A DNA stretch of 64,000 nucleotides from a virus. Taxonomy: Duplodnaviria; Heunggongvirae; Uroviricota; Caudoviricetes. The notes under the pieces were generated by a model that was given only the letters and a program-made list of their open reading frames with translations, was not told where the DNA came from and ran no database searches. The stretch lies in the IMG/VR virus record IMGVR_UViG_3300028534_000514, positions 1-64,000 of that record; one strand, 5' to 3'. Within the stretch, counting starts at the first letter, position 1. Each line of letters starts with the position of its first letter. Below are positions 7,750 through 56,504 of this stretch, in pieces. A program made the position numbers and the translations under genes.

Positions 7750-8076
7750 GGAAATTACCCATGAACCTTTGGTTCATGGGTTGCTAAAAGCAATTTTACG
7801 TGAGGAAAATATGTCGCTCAACTATCCTTAGATAATTCAGTGACATATTTTGGTTTGTGTTTCTGTTTTCTAGAGTATATTTTTTTACTCTTGATTGTTT
7901 TAGTCTTTAACGATATTTCACGCTTAATAGACAACTCTATGTTTCTGTCTCTAGCTTTTGGCTTTTGTTTTCGTTTGCGTGCCATTGTTCGCTCCTGTAA
8001 TTAATATCGCGGGAGTAATCCCGCGTCAGCTCCGTATCGATAATCATTTCCTTAAAGTTGTTAACTGACCATGTCT
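7750..8076. other. structured non-coding region downstream of the GIY-YIG gene
   Basis: No credible ORF. GC-richer than surroundings. Several stable hairpins (cccatgaacctttggttcatggg; cgcgggagtaatcccgcg; tttccacaggaaa). Confidence 0.35.
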
Positions 8077-8733
8077 TTAAGGCGCATTGGTTTCCTTTTT
8101 TAAAATTCGTCCTCGTTTCCAACCTTTTGGGATTGATGTATCTTTTTTTATTTTTCTATTTTCGGAGCCGTTTGTTATCCATATTGTGCCATATTGAGAA
8201 TTTTTGGGACCTTTAGAGTGATTTATTTTTTTAAAAGTTTCTTTTTGTTTCCGCAACGATTCTTCAGAATGCTTCCAATTTGGATGAAGTTCTTGCTTTC
8301 TTCTTTGACCTTTTTGTCCATTTTTTCTTAATTCCTTTTTGGACAGTCCGATTACACCCAATTTCTTTTCAACACAAATTAACCCACCCTTACGAGATTT
8401 TTCTCGATATTCTTCAGTAATAGTCGGTTTCCAAGTTCGCTTTAAAGAATTAATAAAATCAAAACCCCCATGTCCTCCCAGTTTTATATTATAATTATTT
8501 TTATCTTTGATATGATCCTCGTCAACCAACATACGTTCAATCCAATACGTTATCTCTTTTGAGCGTCCTACAAAAATAGGTAATTTATAGAAATTTTCTC
8601 TTCCATATTTATTTAAGGCCCTTTGAAAATAAGTACCTGAACCCAAGTACTCATCGTCAAAAGACCCTTTATGCACACCTATGTATGTTTTATTATTAAC
8701 TAAATTAGTTGTCTCATAAACATACCAATGCAT
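8077..8733 (-). CDS. GIY-YIG homing endonuclease (T4 Seg-like) with C-terminal NUMOD-like DNA-binding region
   Basis: N-terminus HWYVYETTNLVNNKTYIGVHKGS...YLGSG is a textbook GIY-(10-11)-YIG motif. C-terminus is basic (KKDTSIPKGWKRGR). Confidence 0.8.
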   Translation of the reverse strand: MHWYVYETTNLVNNKTYIGVHKGSFDDEYLGSGTYFQRALNKYGRENFYKLPIFVGRSKEITYWIERMLVDEDHIKDKNNYNIKLGGHGGFDFINSLKRTWKPTITEEYREKSRKGGLICVEKKLGVIGLSKKELRKNGQKGQRRKQELHPNWKHSEESLRKQKETFKKINHSKGPKNSQYGTIWITNGSENRKIKKDTSIPKGWKRGRILKKETNAP

Positions 8734-8755
8734 AATTAATTCCTTTATTTTTTGG

Positions 8756-8841
8756 TGGTCTCGCGAGGGGGATTTGAACCCCCAATCCCTTACGGGCGAA
8801 AGATTTTAAATCTTTTGTGTATACCGTTCCACCACCGCGAG
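8756..8841 (-). tRNA. tRNA-Leu (anticodon UAA), type II, CCA encoded
   Basis: Reverse strand reads CTCGCGG...anticodon loop cuUUAAaau...variable arm...GGGGGTTCAAATCCCCC-TCGCGAG-A-CCA. Acceptor stem pairs with one G-U. Confidence 0.7.
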
Positions 8842-8914: not shown

Positions 8915-8920
8915 TTAAAT

Positions 8921-9036
8921 CCAGGTCTTTAAGGCGCCTCGGTTTCCTTAATTACATTTTTAATGATAGTTCACAATTCCATGTCTTTAAGGCGCATTGG
9001 TTTCCTTAATTGCATTTTTAATGATTATTCACATCC
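8921..9036. repeat. tandem 58-nt direct repeat (2 copies, ~85% identical)
   Basis: caggtctttaaggcgcctcggtttccttaattacatttttaatgatagttcaca / ccatgtctttaaggcgcattggtttccttaattgcatttttaatgattattcaca. Confidence 0.7.
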
Positions 9037-9339
9037 ATCGATATGTACTTCGATGGCTTTTTTTGGCGACACGTATATGAAAGTCGCCGATACATTGAGA
9101 AGCTGCAAAGCTTCTCTTAGGTTCTTGTCTTCGCACGTCCCTTTATAAAGGGTGTCTCTCAACGCGTTTACGTCGAAACCCTCGAGATCGTCAACATAAT
9201 AAATGTTGACGATCTCTTTGCCAGTCATAAATTGGCCGGCTTTTGTTGGTCCACTCTTTGTCAACTTTGTTTGATAAAGAGTAGGCGAAGCAACGAGCAA
9301 CGCTCCTGCGGCTAAAAAAAATAAAAGTATTCTTCTCAT
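9025..9339 (-). CDS. small secreted protein (~104 aa; start revised to MRRILLFF)
   Basis: The track ORF (to 9408) overlaps tRNA-Ser. The internal start has SD aaaaggaagagaaATG and a signal peptide MRRILLFFLAAGALLVASPTLY. Confidence 0.5.
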   Translation of the reverse strand: MRRILLFFLAAGALLVASPTLYQTKLTKSGPTKAGQFMTGKEIVNIYYVDDLEGFDVNALRDTLYKGTCEDKNLREALQLLNVSATFIYVSPKKAIEVHIDGCE

Positions 9340-9646: not shown

Positions 9647-9681
9647 AAAATGATATATATTGTATAATCTAGTAATATATA

Positions 9682-9760
9682 AGGGACAACAACCTTTAGT
9701 TGTCCCTTCAATGTTAATATATTTATAGTTTTTTACTTTATTCTAAAGTAAAAAATATCG
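9682..9760. promoter_or_regulatory. hairpin + conserved 45-nt element (copy 1), containing TATAAATA on the minus strand
   Basis: agggacaacaacctttagttgtccct hairpin then caatgttaatatatttatagttttttactttattctaaa. Near-identical copy at 45028-45070. Lies upstream (minus sense) of the tRNA cluster. Confidence 0.4.
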
Positions 9761-9769: not shown

Positions 9770-10774
9770 TTAAAATACAAAGGTATATACAATAGCATAT
9801 ATTAATATTAATAGTTGCCATAAAATAATCACGTTAAAGTAATCATTAATTGGTGTATTAAAATACATTCTGCCTATATGTATACATTTATGGGTTGGGC
9901 TAAGATTATAAGCAATGAATTCAATTGTTAGAAACCATACCAAATAATGTATACCAAAGATTGAAATTATTATTGAAGCTAACCCGGCATATTTTCCGCT
10001 TGAACCCATAAGCCAACTAGCAGTAAAAGAAAAAAAACTAGCATAAACTAGGCTATGATTATTTTTGAGCAATTGCTCGAAAAGAGCAAAATGTTCTTTT
10101 ATAAAGAGTGAAACTATTAAAATAATAAATAATAATAAAACCAATTTCCAGTTTATGTATTTAAATATTTTTTTAATAGAGGAGTTACTTATTAATATAT
10201 AATACCCAGCGATTGGTATAAAGGTCAAAGCTGGAGAGTACCCAAAGCCTAATAGGATAATACCAAAAAATAATGGAAATGCTTTTAAAAAAAAAGATTT
10301 CAATGAAAATTTTTTCGTGGAAATCTTTAATTCAATATCCTCCTCTTTTATTATAAAAAAAATATATCCAAAAATAAAAAGAAAGGATATCACAATTACT
10401 GGCCACATATATTCAAAATATTCCTGGTAGGTTATACTAAGTACGGCCATTGGTAATATTACGGTTTTTTCAAGAGGACTCCAGAGATAATAATGATGAC
10501 TACTTAAATAATCAATTATTCCGAATTTTTTTCTTGATTTACCAGGTTTTGCCATAGAGTCTAATATACTAGCACTTACTGTTACCCTGCCTGGAATAGG
10601 AAGAATCCCCCCAATTAAAGACACCAAAAAAAGCTGCAGTCTCTTACTGCTAATTCTTGAAAGAACTATAAATATATCACTCAAAAATCCATAAGTTTTA
10701 ACGATTCCTGATATAATCATTATAGCGATCAAAAAGATAATATATTGAAATGGTAATATGTAATTTAATTCCAT
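9770..10774 (-). CDS. polytopic integral membrane protein (334 aa, ~9-10 TM)
   Basis: Extremely hydrophobic throughout. No catalytic motif recognised. Contains an in-frame copy of the GAGCAATTGCTC element. Confidence 0.55.
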   Translation of the reverse strand: MELNYILPFQYIIFLIAIMIISGIVKTYGFLSDIFIVLSRISSKRLQLFLVSLIGGILPIPGRVTVSASILDSMAKPGKSRKKFGIIDYLSSHHYYLWSPLEKTVILPMAVLSITYQEYFEYMWPVIVISFLFIFGYIFFIIKEEDIELKISTKKFSLKSFFLKAFPLFFGIILLGFGYSPALTFIPIAGYYILISNSSIKKIFKYINWKLVLLLFIILIVSLFIKEHFALFEQLLKNNHSLVYASFFSFTASWLMGSSGKYAGLASIIISIFGIHYLVWFLTIEFIAYNLSPTHKCIHIGRMYFNTPINDYFNVIILWQLLILIYAIVYTFVF

Positions 10775-13765: not shown

Positions 13766-13850
13766 TTATAAATCCTTATATTATTCTGCGTTAGAATTAT
13801 AATTTCTATATTTGCTCTAAAAAAATTAGCACAGGAAAATACCCTGCCAA

Positions 13851-14438: not shown

Positions 14439-14522
14439 ATAGTATCCTTTATATAAATGTATTGAATCTTTGTTATCATAATCTAACCCGCGCAGGAAAA
14501 ACTATTGGCCAAAGCCAATAGT

Positions 14523-16743: not shown

Positions 16744-19700
16744 TTATAGATCTGGATCTAATATAGCTCCCCTGAAAAAGGTTTCAACCAATTTCTTAGT
16801 TTTTCCCTCTGCCGAATCGACATGTAAATCAAATATTTTTGGCATTTTACCAGTTTTAAGAACTTCTTTTTGGAATTTTCTTTTTGCCTCTTTATTATCA
16901 GAATGTAGTCCGTGAACTTCTTTTATAAGTAGACCAGGTTCTTTATAAGACATTCCAAATAAATCATATAATCCTAGCTTAATTGCTCCGGCTCCTACTC
17001 TAGTTCCGGAGCGTCCTTGTCCTGTAGTAAACTGACTTTTGACAGATAACGACCCCCGCGCACCAGCCATTGCCTTAGGAAAATGTTCCAAATAATTTAC
17101 AGGCATTATTCCAACAGGAACCTCTTTCTCTGTAAGAATATCTTCCTCTGGTACATATACCTTTTCATTAAGCGGAATACCCAAAACATTAGCAGCTTTC
17201 TGTATATTTTCAATAGTTATTTTATTTTTATGCGGAGGTACTAATAAAGGAAATGCCGGTCTTGATAGAGGATCACTTCCTAAAATATATTTCTTAATTT
17301 CTTGTGAAGAGCGGCTATCAAAGAAACCCATTACTTCATTTATTAAGAATTTATCTTTTGATTCATCCATATGGGTAAATACTTCTAGGATAAGTTCTCT
17401 AGCTTTTGATATTTGATCAGCTTTCGCTAATTCTTGAAGCTTCTTATTTAAGAAGTAAATAACTTTTCCACTATACATTAATAGAAGAATACTTACGTTT
17501 TTTCTTGATACAATCGAAAGTGGAGTTGGTATAAATTCAATCTTCATATTGGTTTTTTCCGAAACGGGTTCTTTACCTTTTGGTATGATGTATTGAACTG
17601 TTCCTTTACCACCGGTTGCTGCTAACGTAAACTTAGATCCATTTGCTATTTTATTTGGTTTTTCTATATAAATTTCGACAACTGCTCCATCGAATTCTGA
17701 GCCATTTACCGAATGCCCTCCGATTTTTATAATCTCTGTATTTGGGATATCAGAAATACAATCAACGTATTCCTTATGATTATGTTTTAAAAGTTGACAT
17801 TCTTGTTGTCTAGCTTCAACATCCTTTGCCATTTTTTTCCACTCTTTAAAAACTGTACTATCAACATTTTTATTATTTATTTTAATAACAATATCCGTAA
17901 TTTTTCCTCCGGGAGAACGGTAGTTTGTCTGCTGGCCGCTAAATTCAACTCCGGTTAAAACATCGTCTGATGTTGACTCGTCATCCTCTTCCTCGACAAT
18001 AAATCTATCAAGATTATTGCTTCCGGAAAAAGAAATTAAAATATCACCAGGATCAGTCTCTTTGCCAGATAAAAGATTCCAATCAACTATTTTTGCATCA
18101 ACTGGTATAACAACTATAACTTTTTCAAGAATTTTTTGCTCGTATTTATCCTGAACGCTTTCAGTGACTACCCAACCATCTTCATAATTCATTCCTCTAT
18201 ACGACATTTCAGCAACTACCAGGTTTTTACCACTAGCCAATTTTCCAGTTTTTAGACTCGAAGTTGTTGCTAATAAATCACCTTCTTTTACTCTTTGTCC
18301 GTCTTTAGCAATTACGTGGTATTTCATTGGGATATAAATACCACGTTTAGTTCTAGCTCTGGTTGGTTTAATACTATACTTAGATTGGGTTCCATCTCTA
18401 TTCTTAATAATAATTGTTTCATCAGTTATACTTGAAATAATTCCATCTTTTTTAGCTTTAATAGCAAATCTATCAGAAACAAGATGAGGTATAATACTTT
18501 CAAAAGAGGTTTGAACAAGAGGTTCATCTGGATTATCTAATTGAACGAATTGTCCAAATTGTTGGTTACCCATAACCCTTCTGGTAGTATCATCATATTC
18601 GTAGAATGGTTGAAGTGATTCACTCGCGGATAATAAATCGAACGGGTTAATATCATCAGTAAATTCTCTCTGCATAATAGATCCAAATCGATCAGTAATG
18701 GTTGCTTTATTAGTTAGTGTTTGGGTACTACCAACATTTCCATACTCATTTGTAGATACTGGAGCGATTACACCATAATATGAAGGATTCAAATCCCTTT
18801 TCTTTAGGGTAACTTGATCGGCCTTCATATTATTAACACCTGTTTTTGTAATCTTAGAACTAAAGTTAATCTCTTCAAGTGGATTTGTAGTTTGAGTATA
18901 TTGTAACATACCGCTTGCTTGCAATCGCTTAACGATCGCCAATGGATCTAAAATAAGTTTAAGATCATAAGCGTTTCCGGACTGTTTAAGATTTCTAACT
19001 CTACCTAAAGCTTCTCCAAATACGTTATACGCACTATTAGAAATCGCCTCAGCCATACGAATACGTTGGGTATTCAAATCGTTAAAATCTTCTTCTTTAG
19101 CATTCATTAAATATTTTGGAATATATTTACCAAGAACATCCATCATATTCGATGGAATATTATACATTTTTAAAATTTTAGCTGTTGTTTGGTCAATAAA
19201 TTGCCTATTTAATGTCTCTAAATTTTTACCAAAGGATTCACCTTTCATTTTAAAAAAAGGATTCCATAAATCTTTAGAAGACAATTCTTTCTTTTCAACT
19301 GGAAAAATTAACTTCATACCATCGAGAAGTCCATTAATCATATATTCTTCGATAACGCTGGTTGCGAAAATAGAAAGATAATTATCTTTATCGTCTATTA
19401 ATTTAAGATGTAGGTGAGCCCCAGGAGCTTTTTTCTCTCCAAATTGATAACGAAATCCAAAAAATTTAAGAGTATCCATTAATCCAAGATTTGCTATAAA
19501 AAAATGAATAAGATTAATAGTTTTACCCTGTATCTTTAATCCAAATCGAGGTTTTGAACTCTTGGCCTTTAAATCTATTCTTTCGCCAAATACTTCTTTT
19601 GAAATATTTGTATATAAATTTATAAGAAATGAAACAATTTCTTCTTTTGGCCATTTTTTAAAGTCACCTTCTTCTGTATGAAAATGAATATCAGGATCAT

Positions 19701-19800
19701 CTGGTGTTATATAAGCATATTCGACAACCTTAGAACCATTTAATTTTTCATAAAAATATAGTTTATCTTTTTTTTCATTTTCAAAATTAATTCGATACAT
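16744..19800 (-). CDS. multisubunit RNA polymerase beta-subunit homologue, C-terminal part (Rif-region to C-terminus), highly diverged
   Basis: TTNPLEEINFSSKIT ~ QNNPLSEITHKRRIS. PSYYGVIAPVSTNEYGNVG ~ THYGRVCPIETPEGPNIGL. GKNLVVAEMSYRGMNYEDGWVVTES ~ [25 protein letters not shown]. 1018 aa. Own AACAAAGTAT promoter-like motif. Confidence 0.7.
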   Translation of the reverse strand: MYRINFENEKKDKLYFYEKLNGSKVVEYAYITPDDPDIHFHTEEGDFKKWPKEEIVSFLINLYTNISKEVFGERIDLKAKSSKPRFGLKIQGKTINLIHFFIANLGLMDTLKFFGFRYQFGEKKAPGAHLHLKLIDDKDNYLSIFATSVIEEYMINGLLDGMKLIFPVEKKELSSKDLWNPFFKMKGESFGKNLETLNRQFIDQTTAKILKMYNIPSNMMDVLGKYIPKYLMNAKEEDFNDLNTQRIRMAEAISNSAYNVFGEALGRVRNLKQSGNAYDLKLILDPLAIVKRLQASGMLQYTQTTNPLEEINFSSKITKTGVNNMKADQVTLKKRDLNPSYYGVIAPVSTNEYGNVGSTQTLTNKATITDRFGSIMQREFTDDINPFDLLSASESLQPFYEYDDTTRRVMGNQQFGQFVQLDNPDEPLVQTSFESIIPHLVSDRFAIKAKKDGIISSITDETIIIKNRDGTQSKYSIKPTRARTKRGIYIPMKYHVIAKDGQRVKEGDLLATTSSLKTGKLASGKNLVVAEMSYRGMNYEDGWVVTESVQDKYEQKILEKVIVVIPVDAKIVDWNLLSGKETDPGDILISFSGSNNLDRFIVEEEDDESTSDDVLTGVEFSGQQTNYRSPGGKITDIVIKINNKNVDSTVFKEWKKMAKDVEARQQECQLLKHNHKEYVDCISDIPNTEIIKIGGHSVNGSEFDGAVVEIYIEKPNKIANGSKFTLAATGGKGTVQYIIPKGKEPVSEKTNMKIEFIPTPLSIVSRKNVSILLLMYSGKVIYFLNKKLQELAKADQISKARELILEVFTHMDESKDKFLINEVMGFFDSRSSQEIKKYILGSDPLSRPAFPLLVPPHKNKITIENIQKAANVLGIPLNEKVYVPEEDILTEKEVPVGIMPVNYLEHFPKAMAGARGSLSVKSQFTTGQGRSGTRVGAGAIKLGLYDLFGMSYKEPGLLIKEVHGLHSDNKEAKRKFQKEVLKTGKMPKIFDLHVDSAEGKTKKLVETFFRGAILDPDL

Positions 19801-19857: not shown

Positions 19858-19885
19858 AATCATAAGCCCGTAGGCTTATGATTTA
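19858..19885 (-). terminator. hairpin (aaatcataagcc-cgta-ggcttatgattt) followed by TTCCTGTCCC
   Basis: Perfect 12-bp stem. Follows the 92-aa gene. Part of the recurrent hairpin+TCCTGT architecture. Confidence 0.5.
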
Positions 19886-19963
19886 TTTTTTGGTTGCCCA
19901 ATCAGCGACGGCCTTCTGGATATCCATTTCCTTTTTACACTAAGGTATCTATTTTCATTTTAT

Positions 19964-23847: not shown

Positions 23848-23965
23848 AAAATATCCTTTTTATCTTTTTTATTTTTATATTACAATTTGTTGCTAGAGGC
23901 AATATGTTCAGGTATTCTTCAATTTTTTGGCACAGGAAAAAATTAGAGACTTCTGTCTCTAATTT

Positions 23966-24870: not shown

Positions 24871-26043
24871 CTATTCGCTAAATTCAAAAATATCTGTAGT
24901 TAAATCAACTTCTGTTTTATCGAGACTTAACCCAGTATGTGCCGCTTTAAGAGTCATCGCTGTCAACATATTTGCTTGGGCAGTACTCGACAAAAGACCA
25001 ATACCAGCATTTTCTGTAAGATTCATACGCTCTATAAAATCAGGGTTATAACAGGTATGACAAATACCATCTCTTGTTTTACAATATAAAGGACTTCTTA
25101 ATTTAATAGTTTTACCAATTAATTCTGTTCTATCCGGACCAATAATTCCTTGATCAGATACTTTTCCTTTCATCGAGACCAACATATCCTTGTTTAGAAT
25201 TTTTACGCCCAACCTGCCTGATGTTTTACAATCAATTGTTTTTGATAACTTAACTCCGGCCATAATTGTATTAAGCTGCCTAATCAAATATCCTGGAGCA
25301 GCTGTTTCTCTTGATTTTTTATATTGTGAGACAATAGCTTGGGAGGTATAATTAAAAAATTGAGTCGGTGTTAATCCTTCTGCTCCGGAGCGTGGAATAA
25401 CGTCATTAATTTCACCCTTTGCATTAATAGATAAACCAATCGCTACTAAAAGTTTACGTAGATCGTCTGGAGAACCTTTTGCACCGGAATCAAAGCTATC
25501 AATGATCGGATAATCATCCTTGTGTTCGCGAAAATACTCAAGAACCTCTTTCGTTAATTTTTTAAATTGATTATCAACCCATAAAATTGCTGCTTCTTTC
25601 TGATTCTCGGTATTGGCTTCATCTACTTTAGTCTGATATTCATCGATTATTTTTTGGCGCTTAATTCTGAATTCTTTCGGAAGAACTAATGATTCTGGAG
25701 TAAATGAACTAGCAGTATAAGTGCTAAGAAAAAATCCAACTTTATATACCAGCATGTATCTCCACTGAAATTCTTCGTCTGTAAATACATTATACATTTT
25801 ATCCAATAAAATACTTACATTTTTTTTATTTAATGGATAGGGAGGTGAAATTTTATTATCAAGAATAATTTCTTTAAAAAGTTTTCTAATAAGAGAGGTA
25901 TTGATATTTCCTGATGTATCATAATTTCTTTTTACTTCTTTTTGAAATTTGGCGAAAGTTTCTTCGACCCAATCCGGTTGTTTAAATGCTTCTGGGATAA
26001 TAACACCGGGTAGCGTTGTTGTATCAGCATTGGAATATGTCAT
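24871..26043 (-). CDS. multisubunit RNA polymerase beta'-subunit homologue, middle/C-terminal part (bridge helix through trigger loop)
   Basis: [20 protein letters not shown] ~ [29 protein letters not shown] ~ [32 protein letters not shown] ~ [42 protein letters not shown] ~ GEPGTQLTMRTFHIGG. C-terminus ...DIFEFSE ~ DLFEAR. Confidence 0.7.
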   Translation of the reverse strand: [390 protein letters not shown]

Positions 26044-26102
26044 AGGTTAATCCTTTTTTACTTTTTACTTTTTTATTTTTTAAAATCTGACTTACAGGAA
26101 AA

Positions 26103-26134
26103 TCCCGAGTAATAAATATTAACTTTCTACTCGG
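26103..26134 (-). terminator. hairpin between the beta'-N and beta'-middle genes, followed by TTTTCCTGTAAG
   Basis: cccgagta-(16 nt)-tactcggg inverted repeat in a 110-nt spacer. The next gene has its own SD aaaaggattaacctATG. Confidence 0.5.
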
Positions 26135-26153
26135 GATTTGAGAAGCAAAATTG

Positions 26154-36423: not shown

Positions 36424-36449
36424 AGATTTCTGGGTTCGCCCAGAAATCT
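36424..36449 (+). terminator. hairpin agatttctggg-ttcg-cccagaaatct followed by TTCTGTCTTTT
   Basis: Perfect 11-bp stem with a UUCG tetraloop directly after the stop codon. Confidence 0.6.
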
Positions 36450-36463
36450 TTCTGTCTTTTATT

Positions 36464-36480
36464 TTTTAACAAAGGTATAA
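36464..36480 (+). promoter_or_regulatory. late-promoter-like motif TTTTAACAAAGGTATAA
   Basis: AACAAAG core, 24 nt upstream of the ATG at 36504. Confidence 0.45.
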
Positions 36481-44370: not shown

Positions 44371-44402
44371 AAGGTAAAGAGGATGATGAGGGCTAGCCCT
44401 CA
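44371..44402. terminator. bidirectional hairpin gaggatgatgagggc-ta-gccctcatcatcctc between convergent genes
   Basis: 15-bp perfect stem. Sits between the + gene ending at 44352 and the - gene ending at 44393. Confidence 0.6.
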
Positions 44403-44923
44403 TCATCCTCCTGTGATTTTCTAGAAACGCTAGCCTCTATTACGAGACCAGTAAGGTGCTTCATAAGCACCTCATCAATAGCCGTTTCTATTTCTTCCTC
44501 TGATAGTTTTTCACCGGGAATTATACGAATGGTAACCACTCGCGTTTTCCCGGTGAAATTAACAGGGATTTTCTTCTCGTACGCCTCCCCGTTTTTAATA
44601 GTTTTCGAGGGAGTACTTTCCATCTCAGAAAGCACTTCCTTTGCAATATTTTGAAGATCTTCCAAAGGAAGATCTTTAATAGCGTTTAGGGTTTTTTTCA
44701 TTTTAACCCATCGGTATATCGCGAGCATCATAATAGCGATTACGCTTGATACCAGCACCTCGCCTGGTGCCAAGTATACTACACCTAGATTTTCCATTAT
44801 ATAGGCAAACCCAGAACCCACGATAAAGACTAATCCGGTTGCCCAGATTAGCCCGACTATAAGCCATTGTATTTGAGTAGATCTTGATCTACTCATAATA
44901 TCTTTTGGTAATTTTGGTAACAT
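44393..44923 (-). CDS. membrane protein (176 aa, N-terminal 2-3 TM + soluble C-domain)
   Basis: ORF track. SD aaggagataaaATG. Upstream (minus sense) of it lie the conserved 45-nt element and a TATAAT-like box. Confidence 0.45.
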   Translation of the reverse strand: MLPKLPKDIMSRSRSTQIQWLIVGLIWATGLVFIVGSGFAYIMENLGVVYLAPGEVLVSSVIAIMMLAIYRWVKMKKTLNAIKDLPLEDLQNIAKEVLSEMESTPSKTIKNGEAYEKKIPVNFTGKTRVVTIRIIPGEKLSEEEIETAIDEVLMKHLTGLVIEASVSRKSQEDDEG

Positions 44924-44992: not shown

Positions 44993-45070
44993 GGCGCTTA
45001 AGCGCCGGAAACAAAACTGTTGTTTCCTACTAATGTTAATATATTTATAGTTTTATGCTTTATTCTAAAA
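44993..45070. promoter_or_regulatory. two hairpins + conserved 45-nt element (copy 2)
   Basis: ggcgcttaagcgcc and ggaaacaaaactgttgtttcc hairpins, then ctaatgttaatatatttatagttttatgctttattctaaa. Matches 9711-9760. Confidence 0.4.
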
Positions 45071-45097
45071 TTTTTAATACTACTATTTAATGTAATT

Positions 45098-45114
45098 CTA
45101 AACAAAGATTTACA
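45098..45114 (+). promoter_or_regulatory. late-promoter-like motif CTAAACAAAGATTTACA
   Basis: ~25 nt upstream of the fibre gene ATG at 45134. Confidence 0.5.
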
Positions 45115-45133
45115 ATAAAATTAGGAGAAAATA

Positions 45134-48100
45134 ATGAGACGAAATCCAATATACGTATTCGAAGATTTACAGTCAATTGGAATTTACAATGTTCCTGTTG
45201 GTTCAACTGTTCAAATTAACGATGCGGATGACTTAACCCCAGGTAGCCAGCCATTGCTGGTACAAGTAGTTTCAAAGAATGGTTTAAGTACCGGTTCTAC
45301 GGTTGCTGAATTTTTAAGCAATTCTGATAATTATTCAAATGCAAGTGATTCAACTGAGATACCATCAGAGCTTGAAAAAATTGAGCAGAATGGCAAAATT
45401 GGTTGGAGAATTCTTGGTGCAGATAATACTAAATATGGTGAAATTGGTTTAAAAGCTATTGATCTAACCCAGGTTAATACTGGTGCTTCTGGTGTTGCCA
45501 GTTTCGGGGCTACTGGCGATTATGCCTTTACCGCTGGTTTCGAAACTCAGGCTTCAGGAGAGAAATCTACTGCTTTAGGGAGAGGGACTAAAACCCAAAC
45601 TCTTGGAAAAACGGTTATTGGTTCATATAATACAGATTTAAATAATACAGCATTGGTTGAATTCGGTATTGGACAGGCTGATTCCGAAAGAAAAGATGGA
45701 TTGGTTCTTTATGCTGACGGTTCTGTCGAAGCACCAAACTCCACAATGACAGCCATTGATAATAGAGGCCAATATGCCTTGATTACAAAAGAGTACCTTG
45801 ATACTATCGATGCTAAAAAAGTAAATAGATCAGGTGACCATATGGTAGGCGATTTATTCATAGATGGCGCTAGTCTTTTTGTAAGAAAAGATAATAATAT
45901 TGGTGGAGACATTTCCCTTGATGGAAGTCTAACTGTGGGTAATGGTTCTAATGGTTATAGTTATGTATATTTTAACGCTGGTAATGCGAATATAGTATAT
46001 AATACTGTTTCCAATGAATTTCAATTAGAAGGACCATCTACTTCTGGCGCACAAAGAATTTGGCATAGCGGCAATATGGGAACACAATCGGGACTTGATG
46101 CAGATTTATTAGATGGACTGCAGCCTAATGAGTTACCAATCTCGGATGCAACTTCTGCTGAACTTGATTTAAAATATGATAAAGCCGGTGGGACTATTAG
46201 TGGAAGTGTTGCTATTGAAGGAGAATTAGGCGTTACTTCAACCGCGAGATTTGGTGGTAACGTTGAGCTTGGAACGGTTACAACAGAGGTTACCTTTATT
46301 AATGATATTACAATTAATGGTGGGCTAACCGTAGGTCAATATATTTCTGGACTTGCACTGGAATTAGGTCTAGACCAAAATCAATCAAAAATTATTTTTA
46401 CAGATACAGCATCAGCTGACCCTGCTTTTTATTGGGATGCTAATAATGGATATAAAGATTTCTTTGTAGATACAGATGTTTCTGTTGGTAATGTTGTATG
46501 GCATGCTGGAAATTTCTTACCAAATGATAAATATGATAAGACCGGTGGACCTATTTCTGGAGATGTTTCAGTAAGTGGTAATATTGATGTAACCCAGAAT
46601 ATTAATGCTGATGGTGATTTAACTATTGGTGGAACGGCTATTATTTCTGGTGATTTAAGAGGAAATGCAAATCTAAATATTCTTAATAACATCACATCCG
46701 ATACTCTAAATACAACAACAGCCTCAGTTGATGGAGAATTTAATCTTGGCGGAAGCGCCCATGTTTCTGGTACAGGTATTTTTGGTAGTGGATTAAATAT
46801 TACAGGCGATAGTTCTTTCGCTAATAACCTAAATGTCGATGGTATATCAACATTTAATAATGATGTTGTAATTACAGGAAATCTTGATATAGATAAATAC
46901 TTAAGAGTTGTTGGAGATGCTTATTTCGATAAAACCGTTAGTATTGGTTATGACGCCGATAATAATTCAACAATATATTTTACAGATATTTCTGGTCGCG
47001 TTCCAGCTTTATATTGGGATAAAGACACTGCCGATTTCTTCGTAAATATAGATACTGCTACTACTACTGGTACTAAAATTTGGCACGCAGGAAATCTAGA
47101 TCCAAATGATGAAACTATATTTCCTAAACATTTTGATACCTTAGCCGATACACCGGCAAGTAAAACGAATGCTGCTGGGAAATACTTAAGAGTTTCAACT
47201 GATGAAACTAAAATAGAGTATGTTGATGTTCCTGATAATAGCGCTCTATGGGGTAATATTACTGGAGATATAAATAATCAAACAGATTTAATTGATAAAT
47301 TAAATCTTAAATTTGATAAGTCAGGCGGCACAATTAGTGGTACTTTACAAGTCGATGGTACCTCTGTATTTAATGATTTAGTAACCTTTAATAAAAAATT
47401 AACTGCTCGTGATATTGCTGAATTCGAGCAAAGTGTAACTTTTGATTTAGATATAACTGTTCAGGGCGAATCAACATTTAATGAAGATAGTACATTTGGG
47501 GCTAAAGTAAATATTTTGGGAGACATTGACGTTTCCGCTGATAGTTATTTCCGTGGGGATACTTGGATTACCGGCGACCTCGGGGTACAGGGTAGCTCGA
47601 CTCTTCAAGGAAATGTTGCTGTGCAAAATGATCTCCTTGTTCAAAATAACTTAAATGTTATGTTATCAACACAATTAACAGGTAGTACTTCTATAGGTAG
47701 CACACTTACTGTTAGTGATGAAACAACATTAAATGATAAATTATCAGCGAATGGTGATGTTGATATCCAGGGTCTTACCAGAATCTATAATGATATCCAA
47801 ATTCAAGGAGATATTTATGGTTATAGTGATGCTAGTCTTACAGGAGATTTGCGTGTAAGCGGAACTAGTTCTCTAACTGGAGACGTTGTAGCTGGGGCTA
47901 ATGTAACAGTTACTGATAACTTAACAGTTAATAAGCAGACAAATCTAATTGAAGCAGCTCACCTTCAAGACACATTAGACGTAGCCGGAACAACTTCACT
48001 AGTTGGCGATGTTAGCATGTCTAATTCTTTAACCGTTGGTACAACCTTGGATATAGGCACAAACACTACAATCGGAGGAGATTTAACGGTCAATGGTGCA

Positions 48101-49834
48101 TCTACCCTTACTGGTAATGTTTCTCTTGCAAATAATCTTTCTGTTGGTGGAGACCTAGATGTAACTGGGATTAGCACCTTTGGTGATAATATTAATATTA
48201 CAGGAAGCGGAAGCTTCACCGGGGATATTATTGTCGCTGGTACTAGTACACTTACAGGTTTGGTTACAGCAAATGATAATGTAGTTATTGATAAAAATCT
48301 TAATGTTAAAACTGACACTGATATCGATGGATTATTAAATGTTGATAGTGATGCAACCTTTGGTAATAATATAGACGTTAATTCAAATGTTTATGTTCAC
48401 CAAAATTTAATTGTTGATTATAACTCGACAGTTGATGGACTAACTGTTGGTCGTGGAGCTGCCTCATTTGAGGATACTCTAACAGTTTCCGGTTTAATTA
48501 CCGCTAATGATGGCTTGCAGGTTAATGGTGATACCACCCTAAATGGAAAGTTAGACGTATCTTTTGATACAACTATTGGTGGTAATCTTAGTGTAACAGG
48601 TGACATTACTGAAAATGGTGATAGAGTAGCAACCCTTGATAGCTCAACAGGTAAACTCAAAACCTCTCAGTTACCTGCATTGGCGATTACTTCTGTATAT
48701 GTAAAAAATACTATCTCAGAAAGAGATCAATTAGTAACAGATGGCGTTGTTGAAGAAGGGGATGTTTGTAAAGTAATTGATAGTGATGGTAACGGTAATC
48801 CTCAAACTTATATTTTGGATTCAACTGATACCTGGATTGATATTCAAGAAACATCTAATGTGATTTCTGTAAATGGACAGACTGGAGCAGTAGTTCTTTC
48901 AACAGATGATATTGCAGAAGGAACAACCAATCTTTATTATACAGATGCCAGAGCAGATGCACGCGTTCAAGCAGCTATTGACGATAACGCATGGACTGGA
49001 GACACTGATAAGATTCTTTCGGCAGATAAAATTTCAACAGAATTTACTGGAATAGATAATAGAGTATCAACAAACGAAGTAGATATTTCTAATCTTTCAA
49101 ATGAGGTTGACGCTACCCAGGCTGGTGCTGGTTTAGGAAGCGATGGTAGTTATACAGCTGATAGTACCACAAACTATATCTCTGGAGCGACTGATTTATT
49201 TAATGCTGATACGTTATTGGATTCCGCTATTAAAACTAATAGTGATAATATTACTACAAATAGTAACGATATTTCTACCTTACAAACAGATAAGCTTGAT
49301 AAAACAGGTGGTTTAGTTACTGGTGATTTAAATATTGATAATGAATATCACTTGTTAGTTAATCCATGGACATCCGGAGGCAATGTTTCTGCTCAAATTC
49401 TTGGTGATAGATTCGAATTTATCGATGGTGATAATAATATTACCGCTGGTATAATCTATGATATAACCAATAAACATGTTGATATTAAAGTAAATGATAT
49501 TACATCTATAAGTCTTGTTGAAAATGAGGCACCAAGCACTCAATTCCAACCTACGGCTACTAATCACTTAACTCGTAAAGACTATGTTGACAGTGAAATA
49601 GCTTCTATTCCTACACGTCATACTCAAGATGAGGATGGTGATGGAACAACAGTCGAGTATACAATCTCTGGAATTATACTTACAAATTCAGATATTGATG
49701 TATTTATCGATGGGGTAATGCAGCGCCCAGATGGGTCAATTTATACTGTTTCTGATAATGGTACAGATACAAAAGTATCATTTAATACCGCGCCTGCAAA
49801 CGGTGCATGGATTAGATTTAATTATTATAATTAA
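45134..49834 (+). CDS. large tail-fibre / tail-spike-like protein (1566 aa) with beta-helical repeats
   Basis: Conserved N-terminal domain MRRNPIYVFEDLQSIGIYNVPVGSTVQINDADD shared with 3 downstream paralogues. Long runs of degenerate G/N/T/D/V-rich repeats (NLNVDGISTFNNDVVITGNLDID...) typical of fibre shafts. Confidence 0.7.
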   Translation: MRRNPIYVFEDLQSIGIYNVPVGSTVQINDADDLTPGSQPLLVQVVSKNGLSTGSTVAEFLSNSDNYSNASDSTEIPSELEKIEQNGKIGWRILGADNTKYGEIGLKAIDLTQVNTGASGVASFGATGDYAFTAGFETQASGEKSTALGRGTKTQTLGKTVIGSYNTDLNNTALVEFGIGQADSERKDGLVLYADGSVEAPNSTMTAIDNRGQYALITKEYLDTIDAKKVNRSGDHMVGDLFIDGASLFVRKDNNIGGDISLDGSLTVGNGSNGYSYVYFNAGNANIVYNTVSNEFQLEGPSTSGAQRIWHSGNMGTQSGLDADLLDGLQPNELPISDATSAELDLKYDKAGGTISGSVAIEGELGVTSTARFGGNVELGTVTTEVTFINDITINGGLTVGQYISGLALELGLDQNQSKIIFTDTASADPAFYWDANNGYKDFFVDTDVSVGNVVWHAGNFLPNDKYDKTGGPISGDVSVSGNIDVTQNINADGDLTIGGTAIISGDLRGNANLNILNNITSDTLNTTTASVDGEFNLGGSAHVSGTGIFGSGLNITGDSSFANNLNVDGISTFNNDVVITGNLDIDKYLRVVGDAYFDKTVSIGYDADNNSTIYFTDISGRVPALYWDKDTADFFVNIDTATTTGTKIWHAGNLDPNDETIFPKHFDTLADTPASKTNAAGKYLRVSTDETKIEYVDVPDNSALWGNITGDINNQTDLIDKLNLKFDKSGGTISGTLQVDGTSVFNDLVTFNKKLTARDIAEFEQSVTFDLDITVQGESTFNEDSTFGAKVNILGDIDVSADSYFRGDTWITGDLGVQGSSTLQGNVAVQNDLLVQNNLNVMLSTQLTGSTSIGSTLTVSDETTLNDKLSANGDVDIQGLTRIYNDIQIQGDIYGYSDASLTGDLRVSGTSSLTGDVVAGANVTVTDNLTVNKQTNLIEAAHLQDTLDVAGTTSLVGDVSMSNSLTVGTTLDIGTNTTIGGDLTVNGASTLTGNVSLANNLSVGGDLDVTGISTFGDNINITGSGSFTGDIIVAGTSTLTGLVTANDNVVIDKNLNVKTDTDIDGLLNVDSDATFGNNIDVNSNVYVHQNLIVDYNSTVDGLTVGRGAASFEDTLTVSGLITANDGLQVNGDTTLNGKLDVSFDTTIGGNLSVTGDITENGDRVATLDSSTGKLKTSQLPALAITSVYVKNTISERDQLVTDGVVEEGDVCKVIDSDGNGNPQTYILDSTDTWIDIQETSNVISVNGQTGAVVLSTDDIAEGTTNLYYTDARADARVQAAIDDNAWTGDTDKILSADKISTEFTGIDNRVSTNEVDISNLSNEVDATQAGAGLGSDGSYTADSTTNYISGATDLFNADTLLDSAIKTNSDNITTNSNDISTLQTDKLDKTGGLVTGDLNIDNEYHLLVNPWTSGGNVSAQILGDRFEFIDGDNNITAGIIYDITNKHVDIKVNDITSISLVENEAPSTQFQPTATNHLTRKDYVDSEIASIPTRHTQDEDGDGTTVEYTISGIILTNSDIDVFIDGVMQRPDGSIYTVSDNGTDTKVSFNTAPANGAWIRFNYYN

Positions 49835-49851
49835 TCATATAATTCTGTTTT

Positions 49852-49879
49852 AAACCATTGAGCTCGAGCTCAATGGTTT
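49852..49879 (+). terminator. perfect 28-nt palindrome aaaccattgagctc|gagctcaatggttt followed by TTTCCTGTCC and AACAAAGAT
   Basis: Directly after the fibre gene stop. Confidence 0.55.
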
Positions 49880-49919
49880 TTCCTGTCCAAACAAAGATAC
49901 ATAATAAAAAGGAGAAATA

Positions 49920-51158
49920 ATGAGACGAAATCCATTATATGTTTTTGATAATCTGGATTCTAAAGGAATCTATAATGTTCCTCTTGAATCAACTGTCCAA
50001 ATTAATGATGCGGATGGAAACGGATCAACATTGATTGTCCAAGTTAGTTCTAAAGATAATATGGATGTGAATACGACCATCCGAGATTTTTTACAGCTTG
50101 AGGACAATTATGAAAGACCTGGCACTATAGGAATGCTTACTGATGATGCAAAAGGGCAACCAGATGGTGTAGCACCTCTCGATGAGAATGGTTTAATTCC
50201 TGGACGTTATATCCCAACGATGGATATTAATAATGCTTACGTTGTAAATACTGTACAGGATATGTTAGATATATCAAATACTAGCCAGGCTAATATAGGG
50301 GATGTTTGTATTGTCACGGATACAAATGAGACTTATATTTACAATGGCGATCATACAGGTACTGTTGCAGACTGGACAAAACTTATTATTAATATAGGAG
50401 ATGTTCAATCTGTAAATGGGAAAACGGGTGTTGTTGTATTAAATGCTGATGATATTGATGAAGGCGCAATTAATCGTTATATGAATCCAACGTCTTTTAA
50501 AGATTATTTTAGACAGGAGCCCATTCAAAATTTATCGAATGTAATTGATGGTCCTGCTAATGTTGGAGACGCCTTAACTTTTGATGGAACGAATTGGGGA
50601 GCTGCCCAGATCCCACAAAAAGTAGTTTCTGTTAATGGATTTGATGGGGTTGTTAATCTAACCACTTCTGAAATTTCTGAAAATGGAAATCTTTATTATA
50701 CAGATGATAGAGTAGATAGCCGTATTCAAACTGAATGGATCGACCCAATTTCTGGTATAGGTGATTATAATAAAATATGGTCAGCTGACAAGATTGCTAC
50801 TGAATTATCATATTTAACTACTAAAGATTATGTTGATAATGGACTAGAATTGAAATTTGATAAAGTTGGTGGGACAATTACAGGGGATGTTTTAATCGAT
50901 GGACAATTGACATTATCAAATGGCGATATTAAAATTGGCGATAGTAATGGTATTTCTTTATATCCAGATGCTGCCCCAACGACAGACTGGGAACCAACCG
51001 AACCAGATAGTTTAGTAAGAAAAGACTATGTTGATGGGGAAATTGCATCAAGAGTTGCAGTTGATCCTGGAGATTCAATAGCTACTGATATTGAACAGTT
51101 AGTATCAGATTATAATGACCTTCTTTCTAATTTAAGAAATGCTGGTATTATAGCATAA
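49920..51158 (+). CDS. tail-fibre paralogue (412 aa)
   Basis: N-terminus MRRNPLYVFDNLDSKGIYNVPLESTVQINDADGNG. SD aaaaaggagaaataATG. Shares SVNGQTG.VVL..DDI.EG..NLYYTD motif with the 1566-aa protein. Confidence 0.6.
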   Translation: MRRNPLYVFDNLDSKGIYNVPLESTVQINDADGNGSTLIVQVSSKDNMDVNTTIRDFLQLEDNYERPGTIGMLTDDAKGQPDGVAPLDENGLIPGRYIPTMDINNAYVVNTVQDMLDISNTSQANIGDVCIVTDTNETYIYNGDHTGTVADWTKLIINIGDVQSVNGKTGVVVLNADDIDEGAINRYMNPTSFKDYFRQEPIQNLSNVIDGPANVGDALTFDGTNWGAAQIPQKVVSVNGFDGVVNLTTSEISENGNLYYTDDRVDSRIQTEWIDPISGIGDYNKIWSADKIATELSYLTTKDYVDNGLELKFDKVGGTITGDVLIDGQLTLSNGDIKIGDSNGISLYPDAAPTTDWEPTEPDSLVRKDYVDGEIASRVAVDPGDSIATDIEQLVSDYNDLLSNLRNAGIIA

Positions 51159-51171
51159 AAAAAGAAAGATT

Positions 51172-51212
51172 ATTTTCGAGCAATTGCTACTTTTGAGCAA
51201 AAGCTCGAAAAT
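51172..51212. repeat. GAGCAATTGCTA palindromic element copy with palindromic flanks, intergenic
   Basis: attttcgagcaattgctacttttgagcaaaagctcgaaaat. Confidence 0.7.
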
Positions 51213-51230
51213 CTTCCTGTGCTTTATATT

Positions 51231-51246
51231 TCAACAAAGATATATT
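51231..51246 (+). promoter_or_regulatory. late-promoter-like motif TCAACAAAGATATATT
   Basis: ~25 nt upstream of the ATG at 51269. Confidence 0.5.
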
Positions 51247-51268
51247 ATTTAAAACTTAGGAGATTCAA

Positions 51269-54067: not shown

Positions 54068-54203
54068 CAAATATAAATATTAATTAAAGACTCGAGATAG
54101 AGTCGGTGGGAAAATTCGGGCAATAGGCTCGGGGCACCCCACCACCCTTTCTTGTTCCCAATTTTTTTACTCAATTGGGTGGTTTTGCTCTAAAGTAGCA
54201 GAA
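54068..54203. other. GC-rich structured non-coding region
   Basis: Nested inverted repeats (gactcgagatagagtc; ggtggg...cccacc; ccaccc...gggtgg) in an otherwise AT-rich genome. No ORF. Confidence 0.35.
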
Positions 54204-54206
54204 ATG

Positions 54207-54243
54207 ATTATTTTCGAGCAATTGCTCAAAAAGAGCAAAGCCC
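54207..54243. repeat. GAGCAATTGCTC palindromic element copy, upstream of the sulfotransferase-like gene
   Basis: attattttcgagcaattgctcaaaaagagcaaagcc. Confidence 0.7.
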
Positions 54244-54263
54244 TATTTTTAAAAGGAATACTA

Positions 54264-55025
54264 ATGTATACAATCGAATCGAATAATGAAATAAAGACTT
54301 TTATGCACCCAGTTAAATCCGCTGGAATTTCTGTTCATACCGGAATTATTAGTGCAAGCAATAACTATAATTATAGAGTCCATGTTAATCAACGACATGC
54401 ACATATTAGAAATTTACCGGAAATTTATAGAGACTATCCAAAATATACTGTATTACGCGAACCACATAAATGGTACAAGAGTTTCCAATCTTTTTTCACA
54501 GGGGTTGAGGGGTATCTTTCTTGGGCGTTGACGGACCCAAAAGAAGATGGTTATATCTATCCAATTAAGCCAGATGAGTTCATAAGACGCATGATGAATA
54601 TGAAAAATACTCTGATCGAATTTCCGAATAAAGCTAGAGTCTTTCGTAATCTTCTTCGCAGTCAAGGGAATATGCACTTTATTACGGGATATTTTGAAAG
54701 CGATTTTCATCCTGAAGATGAGCAATCAATGGAACAATTTGATATGTCATTATATAGATGGTTTACGAATCCGATGGGAGAAGATACTATTTTCATACCA
54801 ATGAATCGTCTTGATATTATAGAAAAAGTATTCAATATAAAGATTCCACATGTTAATAGAACTGACCCTAATAAACAGAATTTTGAATATTCAGAAGAAT
54901 CCATTGAATTAATTAAAAGGGTTGATGTTGAATACTATAAAATGATTGAAACTTTTGATGAAAATAATCTATTGACCTTTAAAGAATGGAGGGAAAAATA
55001 TGGCGAGGTGTTTAACGACCGATGA
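54264..55025 (+). CDS. possible sulfotransferase-fold protein (253 aa; start revised to MYTIES)
   Basis: The track ORF starts at 54204 inside the repeat element. The internal start has SD aaaaggaatactaATG. Weak PAPS-binding-like motifs: HPVKSAGIS (5'-PSB PKxGTT-like) and TVLREPHKWYKSF (3'-PB R.P....S-like). Weak call. Confidence 0.35.
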   Translation: MYTIESNNEIKTFMHPVKSAGISVHTGIISASNNYNYRVHVNQRHAHIRNLPEIYRDYPKYTVLREPHKWYKSFQSFFTGVEGYLSWALTDPKEDGYIYPIKPDEFIRRMMNMKNTLIEFPNKARVFRNLLRSQGNMHFITGYFESDFHPEDEQSMEQFDMSLYRWFTNPMGEDTIFIPMNRLDIIEKVFNIKIPHVNRTDPNKQNFEYSEESIELIKRVDVEYYKMIETFDENNLLTFKEWREKYGEVFNDR

Positions 55026-55097
55026 ATTCATAAAAAAAGCTAGGAAAACAGAATTCTTTAAAGAAGATATTCTTCAATTAAATAAAAAAGGAAATAA

Positions 55098-55958: not shown

Positions 55959-56161
55959 CAAATATAAATGAAGAGACCAGATTTTATACAGCAACTGCTG
56001 AATATTTTAATGAGGTTGAGGATAAATTGGATACCATTACCTGTGGTATCTTTGCAAAAAGTGCGATAGATGCAGAAACTCAAATTAGAGAGGATTTTGG
56101 AAATCATTTTTCAAGAATTAAAACAATTGAGGTTATTGACCACATTACCCCAATCTTTTAG
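55955..56161 (+). CDS. hypothetical protein (68 aa)
   Basis: ORF track. ATGA overlap. Confidence 0.35.
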   Translation: MTNINEETRFYTATAEYFNEVEDKLDTITCGIFAKSAIDAETQIREDFGNHFSRIKTIEVIDHITPIF

Positions 56162-56170
56162 GACTCGGAA

Positions 56171-56416: not shown

Positions 56417-56424
56417 TAACTAAA

Positions 56425-56444
56425 CGAGAGGGAAATTCCTCTCG
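56425..56444 (+). terminator. hairpin cgagaggg-aaat-tcctctcg followed by TTTTCCTGTGCC
   Basis: Directly after the stop at 56416. The AACAAAGAT motif follows at 56461-56477. Confidence 0.55.
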
Positions 56445-56504
56445 TTTTCCTGTGCCTGGGATTTCAACAAAGATAAGAAAGAATAAAGATAAAAGGAATA
56501 TAAA

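Follow-up and report, generated by a model that had tools for sequence, protein, structure and literature searches.

A repeated AT-rich element with an adjoining hairpin in an uncultivated jumbo phage, best read as a previously undescribed form of early promoter

The stretch of DNA analysed here, referred to as the window throughout, comprises positions 1 to 64,000 of the IMG/VR virus record IMGVR_UViG_3300028534_000514 (Caudoviricetes) and belongs to a contig of ~285 kb from a jumbo phage with multisubunit RNA polymerase (RNAP). It carries two copies of a three-part element that, judged by comparison with related phages, is best read as a previously undescribed form of jumbo-phage early promoter and not as the T4-type late promoter to which an earlier note on this DNA had likened it. 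Read on the minus strand, the element consists of an upstream box TTTAGAAT, a spacer of 12 nt, an AT-rich core TATAAATATATTAACATT(G/A) and, at once thereafter, a stable hairpin. That the element is a promoter appears highly probable to us; for the complete model, in which a virion-packaged RNAP (vRNAP) would read box and core early in infection and the resulting RNAs would open with the hairpin, we estimate a probability of about 0.6.

Architecture and conservation of the element

Within the window, the repeat is most evident as an exact 23-mer, AATGTTAATATATTTATAGTTTT (plus strand), which occurs at 9710–9732 and 45032–45054 only, against an expected count of 0.01; two matches were obtained in none of 100 dinucleotide shuffles. 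On the minus strand, 36 of 39 positions are identical between 9747–9709 and 45069–45031, with the similarity ending at the block edges and the flanks being unlike. The duplication described in the earlier note is thereby upheld, with its limits corrected: on the plus strand, caatgtt...ctaaa spans 9709–9747 (not 9711–9749) and ctaatgtt...ctaaa spans 45030–45069 (not 45031–45070). In copy 1 the box occupies 9740–9747 and the core, TATAAATATATTAACATTG, 9709–9727; in copy 2 the box lies at 45062–45069 and the core, TATAAATATATTAACATTA, at 45031–45049, all on the minus strand. Both copies hold AACTATAAATATATTAAC in this orientation and both lie upstream of minus-strand units, as had been noted before, namely a cluster of tRNA-Asn, tRNA-Met and tRNA-Ser (9646–9384; ARAGORN and Rfam), after which small open reading frames (ORFs) follow, and a gene at 44923–44393 whose translation is a 176-aa ORFan with two hydrophobic helices. 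A position weight matrix built from all copies found exactly two sites in the window and zero in 20 shuffles.

A search for further copies extended the family considerably. Copies were collected by way of DUF401 homologues, a bipartite scan of IMG/VR (which contributed L099), further stretches of the L076 genome and the relatives L109 and L110/L111, giving eleven independent full copies: the two in the window and nine in five related uncultivated phages, whose protein identity to the window phage is 52–64% or less. A truncated copy is present in a sixth phage (L101). Copy 1 has syntenic counterparts downstream of the DUF401 gene in L076/L105 (273.7-kb scaffold, ENA ERZ23491300 scaffold_4; 52% identity), L078 (59%) and L101 (62%), the DUF401 stop codon being followed in these relatives by TTTAGAAT, 12–13 nt and TATATAAATATT(A/T)ATAATG; the L101 copy reads TATAAATATATTAT, has the AR9-clade core TATATTAT and is ended by the contig edge. 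On the plus strand, and with an exact TTTAGAAT box unless a variant is given, copies stand at L078 1844 (core TATATAAATATTTATAATG, before an ORF at 2329–2553), L099 985 (TATATAAATATTAATATTG, before a ClpB-like AAA+ gene), L105 2404 (TATATAAATATTAATAATG, before a tRNA cluster), L105 12298 (box TCTAGAAT, core TATATAAATATTAATAATA, before a 129-aa gene and then RNAP beta'/beta-like genes), L109 2903 (TATATAAATATTAATAATG, before tRNA-Lys and then an HNH gene), L109 12071 (box GTTAGAAT, core TATATAAATATTAATAATA, before the 129-aa gene and then an RNAP beta'-like gene) and L110 12511 (TATAGAAATATTAAAGTAG, before the 129-aa gene in the same synteny, the contig ending ahead of any RNAP gene). The two minus-strand copies of L107, which is a further stretch of the 273.7-kb relative, both have the core TATATAAATATTAATATTG; they precede a series of 24 small ORFs that show no strong Pfam match (9815) and three small ORFs (18354), the latter copy standing back to back with a late-type promoter.

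Across these copies, the core of the relatives reads TATATAAATATTAATAAT(G/A) and is near-invariant, AT-rich and 19 nt long. It holds ATATTA(A/T) in fixed register, with a purine 7 nt past ATATT(A/T) in ten of the eleven copies and U in the diverged L110 core. The box, given more fully as (AC)TTTAGAAT, is exact in nine full copies and differs by one base in the L105 12298 and L109 12071 variants named above, and its spacing to the core is fixed at 12–13 nt. Since the box-to-core distance is fixed while the spacer is free to vary, the element behaves like a signal that is read by a protein. The bipartite nature of the signal was also indicated by L062, a strain variant (ENA ERZ27262639) that is identical to the window from the 176-aa gene through ACTATAAATATATTAACATT and then diverges upstream, yet keeps TTTAGAAT at equal distance beyond the divergence point despite a different 12-nt spacer. 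Additional TTTAGAAT copies occur upstream, giving three in L078 and two each in L109 and at window copy 2. As a separate observation on L062, comparison of its positions 1–400 with window 45070–45460 shows that a different gene replaces the 1566-aa tail-fibre-like gene and that the breakpoint lies just upstream of the core; breakpoint and replaced neighbour together point to a swap at the tail-fibre locus.

The distribution of the element is narrow. The strict pattern does not occur in AR9, nor in 687 kb from more distant relatives; the motif is likewise missing from all 61 IMG/VR loci with DUF401 homologues of ~40% identity. Scanning 596 Gb of bacterial genomes for the strict bipartite pattern yielded 0 matches, and an exact 23-mer scan of IMG/VR gave none. 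Neither copy region has near-identical DNA among 50,697 phage records, and a literature search on the motif string returned unrelated primer sequences only. Twelve 20-mer matches in JGI metagenomes were all dismissed as chance, as they had neither box nor hairpin, and the bipartite scan of IMG/VR yielded 22 matches of which L099 alone was genuine, the others being AT-rich giant-virus or chance matches.

The hairpin proved to be more than a neighbour. The earlier note had described strong hairpins adjacent to both copies, and such hairpins are indeed found at 9681–9708, 45007–45027 and 44993–45006; they belong to the element itself, as a third part whose structure is conserved. At copy 1, the stem-loop AAGGGACAAC-N8-GUUGUCCCUU (9681–9708, minus strand, 10 bp) has a minimum free energy (MFE) of -16.6 to -17.3 kcal/mol (z -3.2), a stability equalled in 0 of 200 shuffles. 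At copy 2, two stem-loops occupy 44993–45027 on the minus strand, GGAAACAA-N5-UUGUUUCC (45027–45007, 8 bp) and GGCGC-UUAA-GCGCC (45006–44993), with a joint MFE of -17.9 kcal/mol over 45 nt (z -3.45; top 0.7% of random windows). A stem-loop follows the core in all eleven copies, beginning 0–7 nt past the end of the core. Over 45 nt, the MFE averages -14.2 kcal/mol, as against -5.0 kcal/mol in windows drawn at random from these loci, and every copy's fold ranks within the top 0.3–6.7% of such windows. The hairpin sequences are unrelated between copies, so that what is conserved is structure, and compensatory changes are seen at orthologous sites (L109 UAUAGAAUC/GAUUCUAUA versus L110 UAUAGUGUU/AAUACUAUA), with a corresponding example from the window in GGGACAAC/GUUGUCCC versus GGAAACAA/UUGUUUCC. 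None of the element hairpins was called by a terminator scan, and they have neither a U run nor the phage's own TTTTCCTGT tail.

The leaders behind the promoter in the relatives are a further observation. They are long (230–500 nt), GC-richer than the genome and highly structured (L105 12337–12560; L099 1027–1350; L076 11037–11530; L078 1883–2328). An Rfam search of the long leaders behind the motif gave only tRNAs, and they may be unrecognised non-coding RNAs or regulatory leaders.

The early-promoter reading and its rivals

Every one of the eleven copies is oriented toward the gene or genes downstream, and four of them (window copy 2, L099 and the L107 pair) are situated in gaps between divergently oriented genes. 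No gene upstream of these four runs in their direction, so that the unit behind each of them must have a promoter. Window copy 2 is placed between the lone minus-strand 176-aa gene and the plus-strand 1566-aa tail-fibre-like gene, and the former therefore needs a promoter at this position. The suggestion of a promoter class separate from the phage's AACAAAGAT class is borne out by the co-orientation of the homologous copies with the genes that follow them and by the divergent gaps, and the two motifs are indeed distinct. Several of the contexts are typical of early genes in AR9 and phiKZ: tRNA genes in three lineages (window, L105 and L109), the 24-gene operon of small ORFs in L107, and an operon headed by the 129-aa gene in three lineages, with RNAP beta'/beta-like genes following in L105 and L109. 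No copy precedes a structural-looking gene.

The model we favour draws on the analogy of AR9 and phiKZ: a virion-packaged multisubunit RNAP would recognise box and core as soon as the DNA has been injected. Transcription would start at the purine just past the core, at ~9708–9707 for copy 1 and ~45030–45028 for copy 2. If the start is at the predicted purine, the RNA opens with a stem-loop preceded by at most a few unpaired bases. Such a 5' stem-loop with almost no unpaired tail stabilises T7 phi10 and ompA messages by protecting them from 5'-end-dependent decay, and the predicted RNAs, with almost no unpaired 5' tail, may be protected in the same way. Copy 1 would drive the tRNA cluster and probably also the small-ORF block behind it. 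From 9700 to 1, the minus strand has no exact late-type AACAAAGAT and mostly small ORFs, which is why copy 1 probably heads an early block. Copy 2 would drive a single gene, for an accessory membrane protein, that is surrounded by late tail-fibre genes.

The arrangement of the RNAP genes would be in line with this model. The beta-like gene of the 273.7-kb relative that follows the element is 29% identical to the window's 1018-aa beta-like gene, so that the two are paralogues. The window gene has a late-type AACAAAGTATTA promoter and is found, together with a virion-protein gene and two further RNAP-subunit genes, in a block where the promoters are of the AACAA type. Provided that the element is an early promoter, the pattern is the same as in AR9, with genes for the non-virion RNAP (nvRNAP) early and vRNAP genes late; the two paralogous sets were met in different genomes, that of the window phage and that of the relative, and not in one genome. 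Early-type and late-type signals are also distributed in a complementary manner. The 22-kb L105 region has two early-type copies and no AACAAAGAT, and L107 has AACAAAGAT twice, once inside a minus-strand ORF and once in an intergenic region, where the genes behind it resemble tail-fibre genes and show an Ig-like surface domain and a weak match to Mtd_N, and where it stands back to back with an early-type copy. Window copy 2 shows the same back-to-back early/late layout.

Several points weigh against an early assignment, which for a motif of an uncultivated phage is drawn from genomic context. The 64-kb window has two copies only, and a 221-kb more distant relative (L102–L104) shows no such motif. 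The core differs from the AR9 consensus AAATATATATTAT-N6-G, the full 13-mer being unmatched, and in the eight annotated AR9 early promoters examined, both the TTTAGAAT box and a start-site hairpin are missing. The only tRNA gene of AR9 is late. The nvRNAP label of the relative's RNAP operon derives from paralogy and promoter type, and a BLAST search of its beta'-like protein against isolates gave matches too distant to assign it to nvRNAP or vRNAP.

One rival explanation is a promoter for host RNAP, either as a sigma-70 site with only a -10 element (TAGAAT or TATAAA) or as an activator-dependent site in the manner of T4 middle promoters, in which TTTAGAAT would be a MotA-box-like site lying 12 nt ahead of a TATA-type -10 element; the downstream genes would then be accessory, moron-like ones. 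We consider this unlikely. In its favour, TAGAAT is invariant and matches TATAAT at five of six positions, the spacing of 12–13 nt between box and TATA resembles T4 middle-promoter geometry, TTTAGAAT is repeated as a factor-binding site might be (L078, L109 and window copy 2), a promoter scan gives ATAACA-16-TAGAAT at copy 1, and some of the downstream genes are accessory or host-like (tRNAs, the ClpB-like gene, the ORFan membrane protein). It is hard to reconcile, however, with the lack of a conserved -35 element 16–18 nt upstream of any candidate -10 across the copies, with a TATAAA that moves by 2 nt between window and relatives while the rest holds its register, and with candidate hexamers (TATAAA, TAAATA) that are devoid of the key T6. 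Sigma-70-like sites are locally unenriched (3 versus 3.2 and 4 versus 3.5 expected), 27 conserved positions far exceed what sigma-70 needs, copies also head a phage RNAP-subunit operon and a 24-gene small-ORF operon, and characterised phages of this type are independent of host RNAP. Somewhat less weight goes to a middle or other non-early class read by the non-virion polymerase with another specificity factor, which we likewise regard as unlikely. Three promoter classes are known from phiKZ, AACAAAT and AACAAT ahead of replication-type genes hint at more than two classes here, and the AR9 tRNA gene is not early. The element has no AACA-type component, though, and a long, AT-rich, near-invariant motif is a hallmark of vRNAP promoters, nvRNAP middle and late motifs being short or weak. 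Moreover, it precedes an RNAP-subunit operon that has no late-type promoter, so that something besides the operon's own product must transcribe this operon first.

The remaining explanations fare worse. One could assign the function to the hairpin itself, as a terminator, an insulator or an RNA-processing site, or have the element work on the plus strand, where the AT-rich block comes after the hairpins. It is true that the DUF401 stop codon is directly followed by copy 1 and by its syntenic counterparts, and in L078 a second hairpin and then UUUUAUUU follow the first. The hairpins are nevertheless unlike terminators in having no U run and no TTTTCCTGT signature and in going uncalled by the scan, four copies head operons in divergent regions, conservation is far stronger in box, spacing and core than in the sequence of the hairpin, and copy 1, if read on the plus strand, would be directed antisense into a real gene; these possibilities strike us as quite improbable. 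No better placed is the idea of a recombination or mobility boundary, a short repeat flanking exchangeable cassettes or a homing site, to which the abrupt divergence of L062 with its different neighbour, the homing endonuclease genes near the tRNA cluster and contigs ending inside the element might point. Position and orientation are kept at syntenic sites in genomes at 52–64% protein identity, and bipartite conservation with a free spacer and a hairpin conserved in structure only fit a read signal and not a scar. Promoters are commonly mosaic boundaries, so that the L062 pattern fits an early promoter equally well; we judge a boundary as the primary function very improbable, recombination as a side effect being possible. 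The contigs in question, L063 (ending at the equivalent of window 9724) and L101, are two independent short metagenomic contigs, and such ends are expected if a multi-copy repeat breaks assemblies. The T4-type late promoter of the earlier note, finally, would be TATAAATA read by host RNAP with a gp55-like factor. Although the octamer is contained in nearly every copy, it is unenriched in the window (18 versus 14 +/- 3.8 expected), the other 16 occurrences have no common context, its register moves by 2 nt relative to box and ATATTAA, and L110 has TATAGAAATA instead. The conserved signal is bipartite and far longer, running 11–13 nt past the octamer and including the box 12 nt upstream, and the phage's late genes use AACAAAGAT. 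No gp55/gp33-like factor was matched among the 22 window ORFs scanned against PHROGs and Pfam. The likeness did not hold up, and we consider this explanation extremely improbable.

A variation on the early-promoter model concerns the third part of the element. The hairpin might be an obligatory part of the promoter and not a stabiliser, or else a mark of early RNAs, and TTTAGAAT might bind a factor shared by early and late classes; we regard these ideas as speculative, with a low though not negligible probability. The nascent RNA hairpin, or a cruciform in the injected DNA, could be needed for promoter clearance or RNA release by the virion polymerase; as a mark, the hairpin could let early RNAs escape host RNases or RNA-sensing defences; and TTTAGAAT, whose reverse complement is part of some late promoters (ATTCTAAACAAAGAT), could be the site for a factor common to both classes. 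If true, this would be a mode of initiation undescribed for multisubunit phage polymerases.

Relation to known phage promoters

The window phage is a deeply divergent AR9/phiKZ-like jumbo phage that is very distant from AR9, phiR1-37 and Staphylococcus S6. All isolate matches of its large RNAP subunit are below 25% identity (AR9-clade/uracil-DNA phages), the best RNAP matches among isolates being Listeria LPJP1, Fusobacterium JD-Fnp, Yersinia phiR1-37 and Staphylococcus S6-like jumbo phages. The closest known parallel to the element is the early promoter of AR9, AAATATATATTAT-N6-G(+1) with the core TATATTAT, which is long, AT-rich, near-invariant and read by the virion multisubunit RNAP (PMC5312081, PMC7598289). 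With these promoters it shares a long near-invariant AT-rich motif near -10, the ATATTA core, multiple copies per genome, a position ahead of small ORFs of unknown function and of nvRNAP-type genes, and the coexistence with a separate AACA-N6-T(A/G) late class, which in AR9 is read by the non-virion polymerase. Relative to the AR9-clade consensus, ATATTA(A/T) is in fixed register and a purine stands 7–8 nt past ATATTA, the AR9 start being located 8 nt past TATATTA. In AR9, an early promoter precedes each of the five nvRNAP subunit genes, of which four are expressed continuously and one early; the vRNAP genes are late. Four copies in ~53 kb of one relative are comparable to the densities of early promoters in AR9 (41 in 251 kb) and phiKZ (28–32 in 280 kb). 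There are differences as well: outside ATATTA the sequences are unlike, the new motif adds TTTAGAAT 12–13 nt upstream, and it always comes with a hairpin, whereas the eight AR9 early promoters have short unstructured leaders. Box and hairpin thus set this lineage apart from AR9.

Early promoters of phiKZ combine an extended -10-like AT-rich element with a T-rich part upstream of -19 (PMC8244752), and a study of the early phase of infection also located start sites at tRNA genes. Their two-part architecture and presumed reading by a virion RNAP recall the element described here; the sequences differ, phiKZ leaders measure 31–40 nt with no 5' hairpin reported, and phiKZ belongs to the thymine-DNA, nucleus-forming branch.

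Stable hairpins within a few nucleotides of an RNA 5' end are familiar from the T7 phi10 leader and the E. coli ompA 5' UTR. Here, by contrast, the hairpin is a family-wide feature of one promoter class, is conserved in structure only and is a putative stabiliser. Early promoters of the N4 virion RNAP contain a short DNA hairpin upstream of +1 with a conserved sequence that is recognised as DNA. Both systems combine a virion-carried polymerase with a promoter-associated hairpin, but in our element the hairpin is placed at +1 or beyond it, and its sequence and size are free to vary; an N4-type hairpin promoter is a poor fit to hairpins that are positioned downstream of the core and are unrelated in sequence and size. 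The T4 late promoter TATAAATA works with gp55, gp33 and gp45, and its likeness to the element is confined to the octamer in the core, which is unenriched and of unfixed register inside a far longer signal, in a phage with late genes that use AACAAAGAT.

How virion-packaged multisubunit polymerases of jumbo phages find their promoters is poorly understood, with early promoters mapped in few cultured phages. For an uncultivated lineage that branches deeply, the element would add an early-type signal that is well defined and validated by comparison. Partitioning genes by the two promoter classes would make it possible to predict, from sequence alone, the early and the late regulon of metagenomic jumbo phages as well as their nvRNAP and vRNAP gene sets. 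The pairing of promoter and 5' stem-loop, absent from AR9, leads to a testable hypothesis on the protection of early RNA or on promoter escape, and the compact promoter-plus-leader module is a candidate for use with recombinant polymerase.

Late-type promoters and neighbouring genes

The window's genes change strand at 32.7 kb, from minus before this point to plus after it. They include RNAP beta/beta'-like genes (16744–19800, 24871–26043 and 26154–27419) and also encode RecJ, a primase, ribonucleotide reductase and homing endonucleases. The late-type motif AACAAAGAT occurs seven times versus 1.7 expected (14466, 32750, 45101, 49890, 51233, 56466 and 57375); its consensus, TTYAACAAAGAT-N2-TA, and the form AACAAAGAT(N2)TA fit the AR9 late promoter AACA-N6-T(A/G). 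An AR9-like late motif is a notable find in a phage with RNAP subunits less than 25% identical to those of the AR9 clade. The variants AACAAAT and AACAAT precede several minus-strand genes, replication-type genes among them.

The late-type promoter of the 1566-aa tail-fibre-like gene, ATTCTAAACAAAGATTTA (45095–45112, plus strand), fits AACA-N6-TA and includes ATTCTAAA, the reverse complement of the TTTAGAAT box. More generally, late promoters in divergent early/late gaps read ATTCTAAACAAAG(A/G)T, with first eight bases that are the reverse complement of TTTAGAAT (window 45095–45102 on the plus strand; L107 ~18347–18354; L062 ~346–353), and in L107 one set of eight bases serves both the early-type and the late-type promoter. 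The phage's usual terminators consist of a GC hairpin and then a conserved TTTTCCTGT(G/C)C tail, a conserved tail in this position being unusual, and they usually lie 10–30 nt ahead of a late-type AACAAAGAT promoter. Examples are found on the plus strand at 35675–35702, 36430–36465, 49855–49885, 56425–56455 and 62070–62100, and on the minus strand at 13820–13850, 14480–14522, 19860–19900, 23925–23965 and 26090–26140.

Copy 1 is flanked by the stop codon of a 334-aa gene of the DUF401 family (9770–10774, minus strand) and by the tRNA-Asn/Met/Ser cluster, past which tRNA-Leu (8756–8841) and small ORFs follow on the same strand. Between tRNA-Ser and tRNA-Leu, a small minus-strand ORF (~9025–9339) has a signal-peptide-like N-terminus, MRRILLFFLAAGALLVASP.... 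A 58-nt unit is present in three copies around tRNA-Leu (8065–8122, 8917–8974 and 8975–9032), and a tRNA-like 3' fragment, GGTTCAAATCCCCCTCGCGAGACCACCA (8734–8760), lies just upstream of an HNH endonuclease gene (8077–8733); repeats and fragment suggest endonuclease-associated rearrangement of the tRNA cluster. In the 273.7-kb relative, LAGLIDADG intein-type domains are carried by an AAA ATPase (L105 10001–12061) and a helicase (L107 10001–12778).

The 176-aa protein behind copy 2 has no homologue besides itself among 5.8 billion proteins and no Pfam or PHROG match; its unit is closed by a bidirectional terminator hairpin (44377–44412) with a 14–16 bp stem and T runs on both strands. On the other side of the gap, a run of tail-fibre-like genes extends over 45134–63424, with common N-terminal segments and internal repeats (families D5–D19), and the 1566-aa protein contains a bactofilin-like beta-helix segment. 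Finally, the palindrome GAGCAATTGCTC occurs about 12 times in the window, between and inside genes (~10067, 16689, 20601, 22979, 27516, 30962, 37177, 40145, 51178, 54217, 62260 and 62278), often as TTGCTC-N4-GAGCAATTGCTC-N4-GAGCAA or after GATTATTTT; it may serve as an operator or else represent a mobile mini-element or structural repeat.

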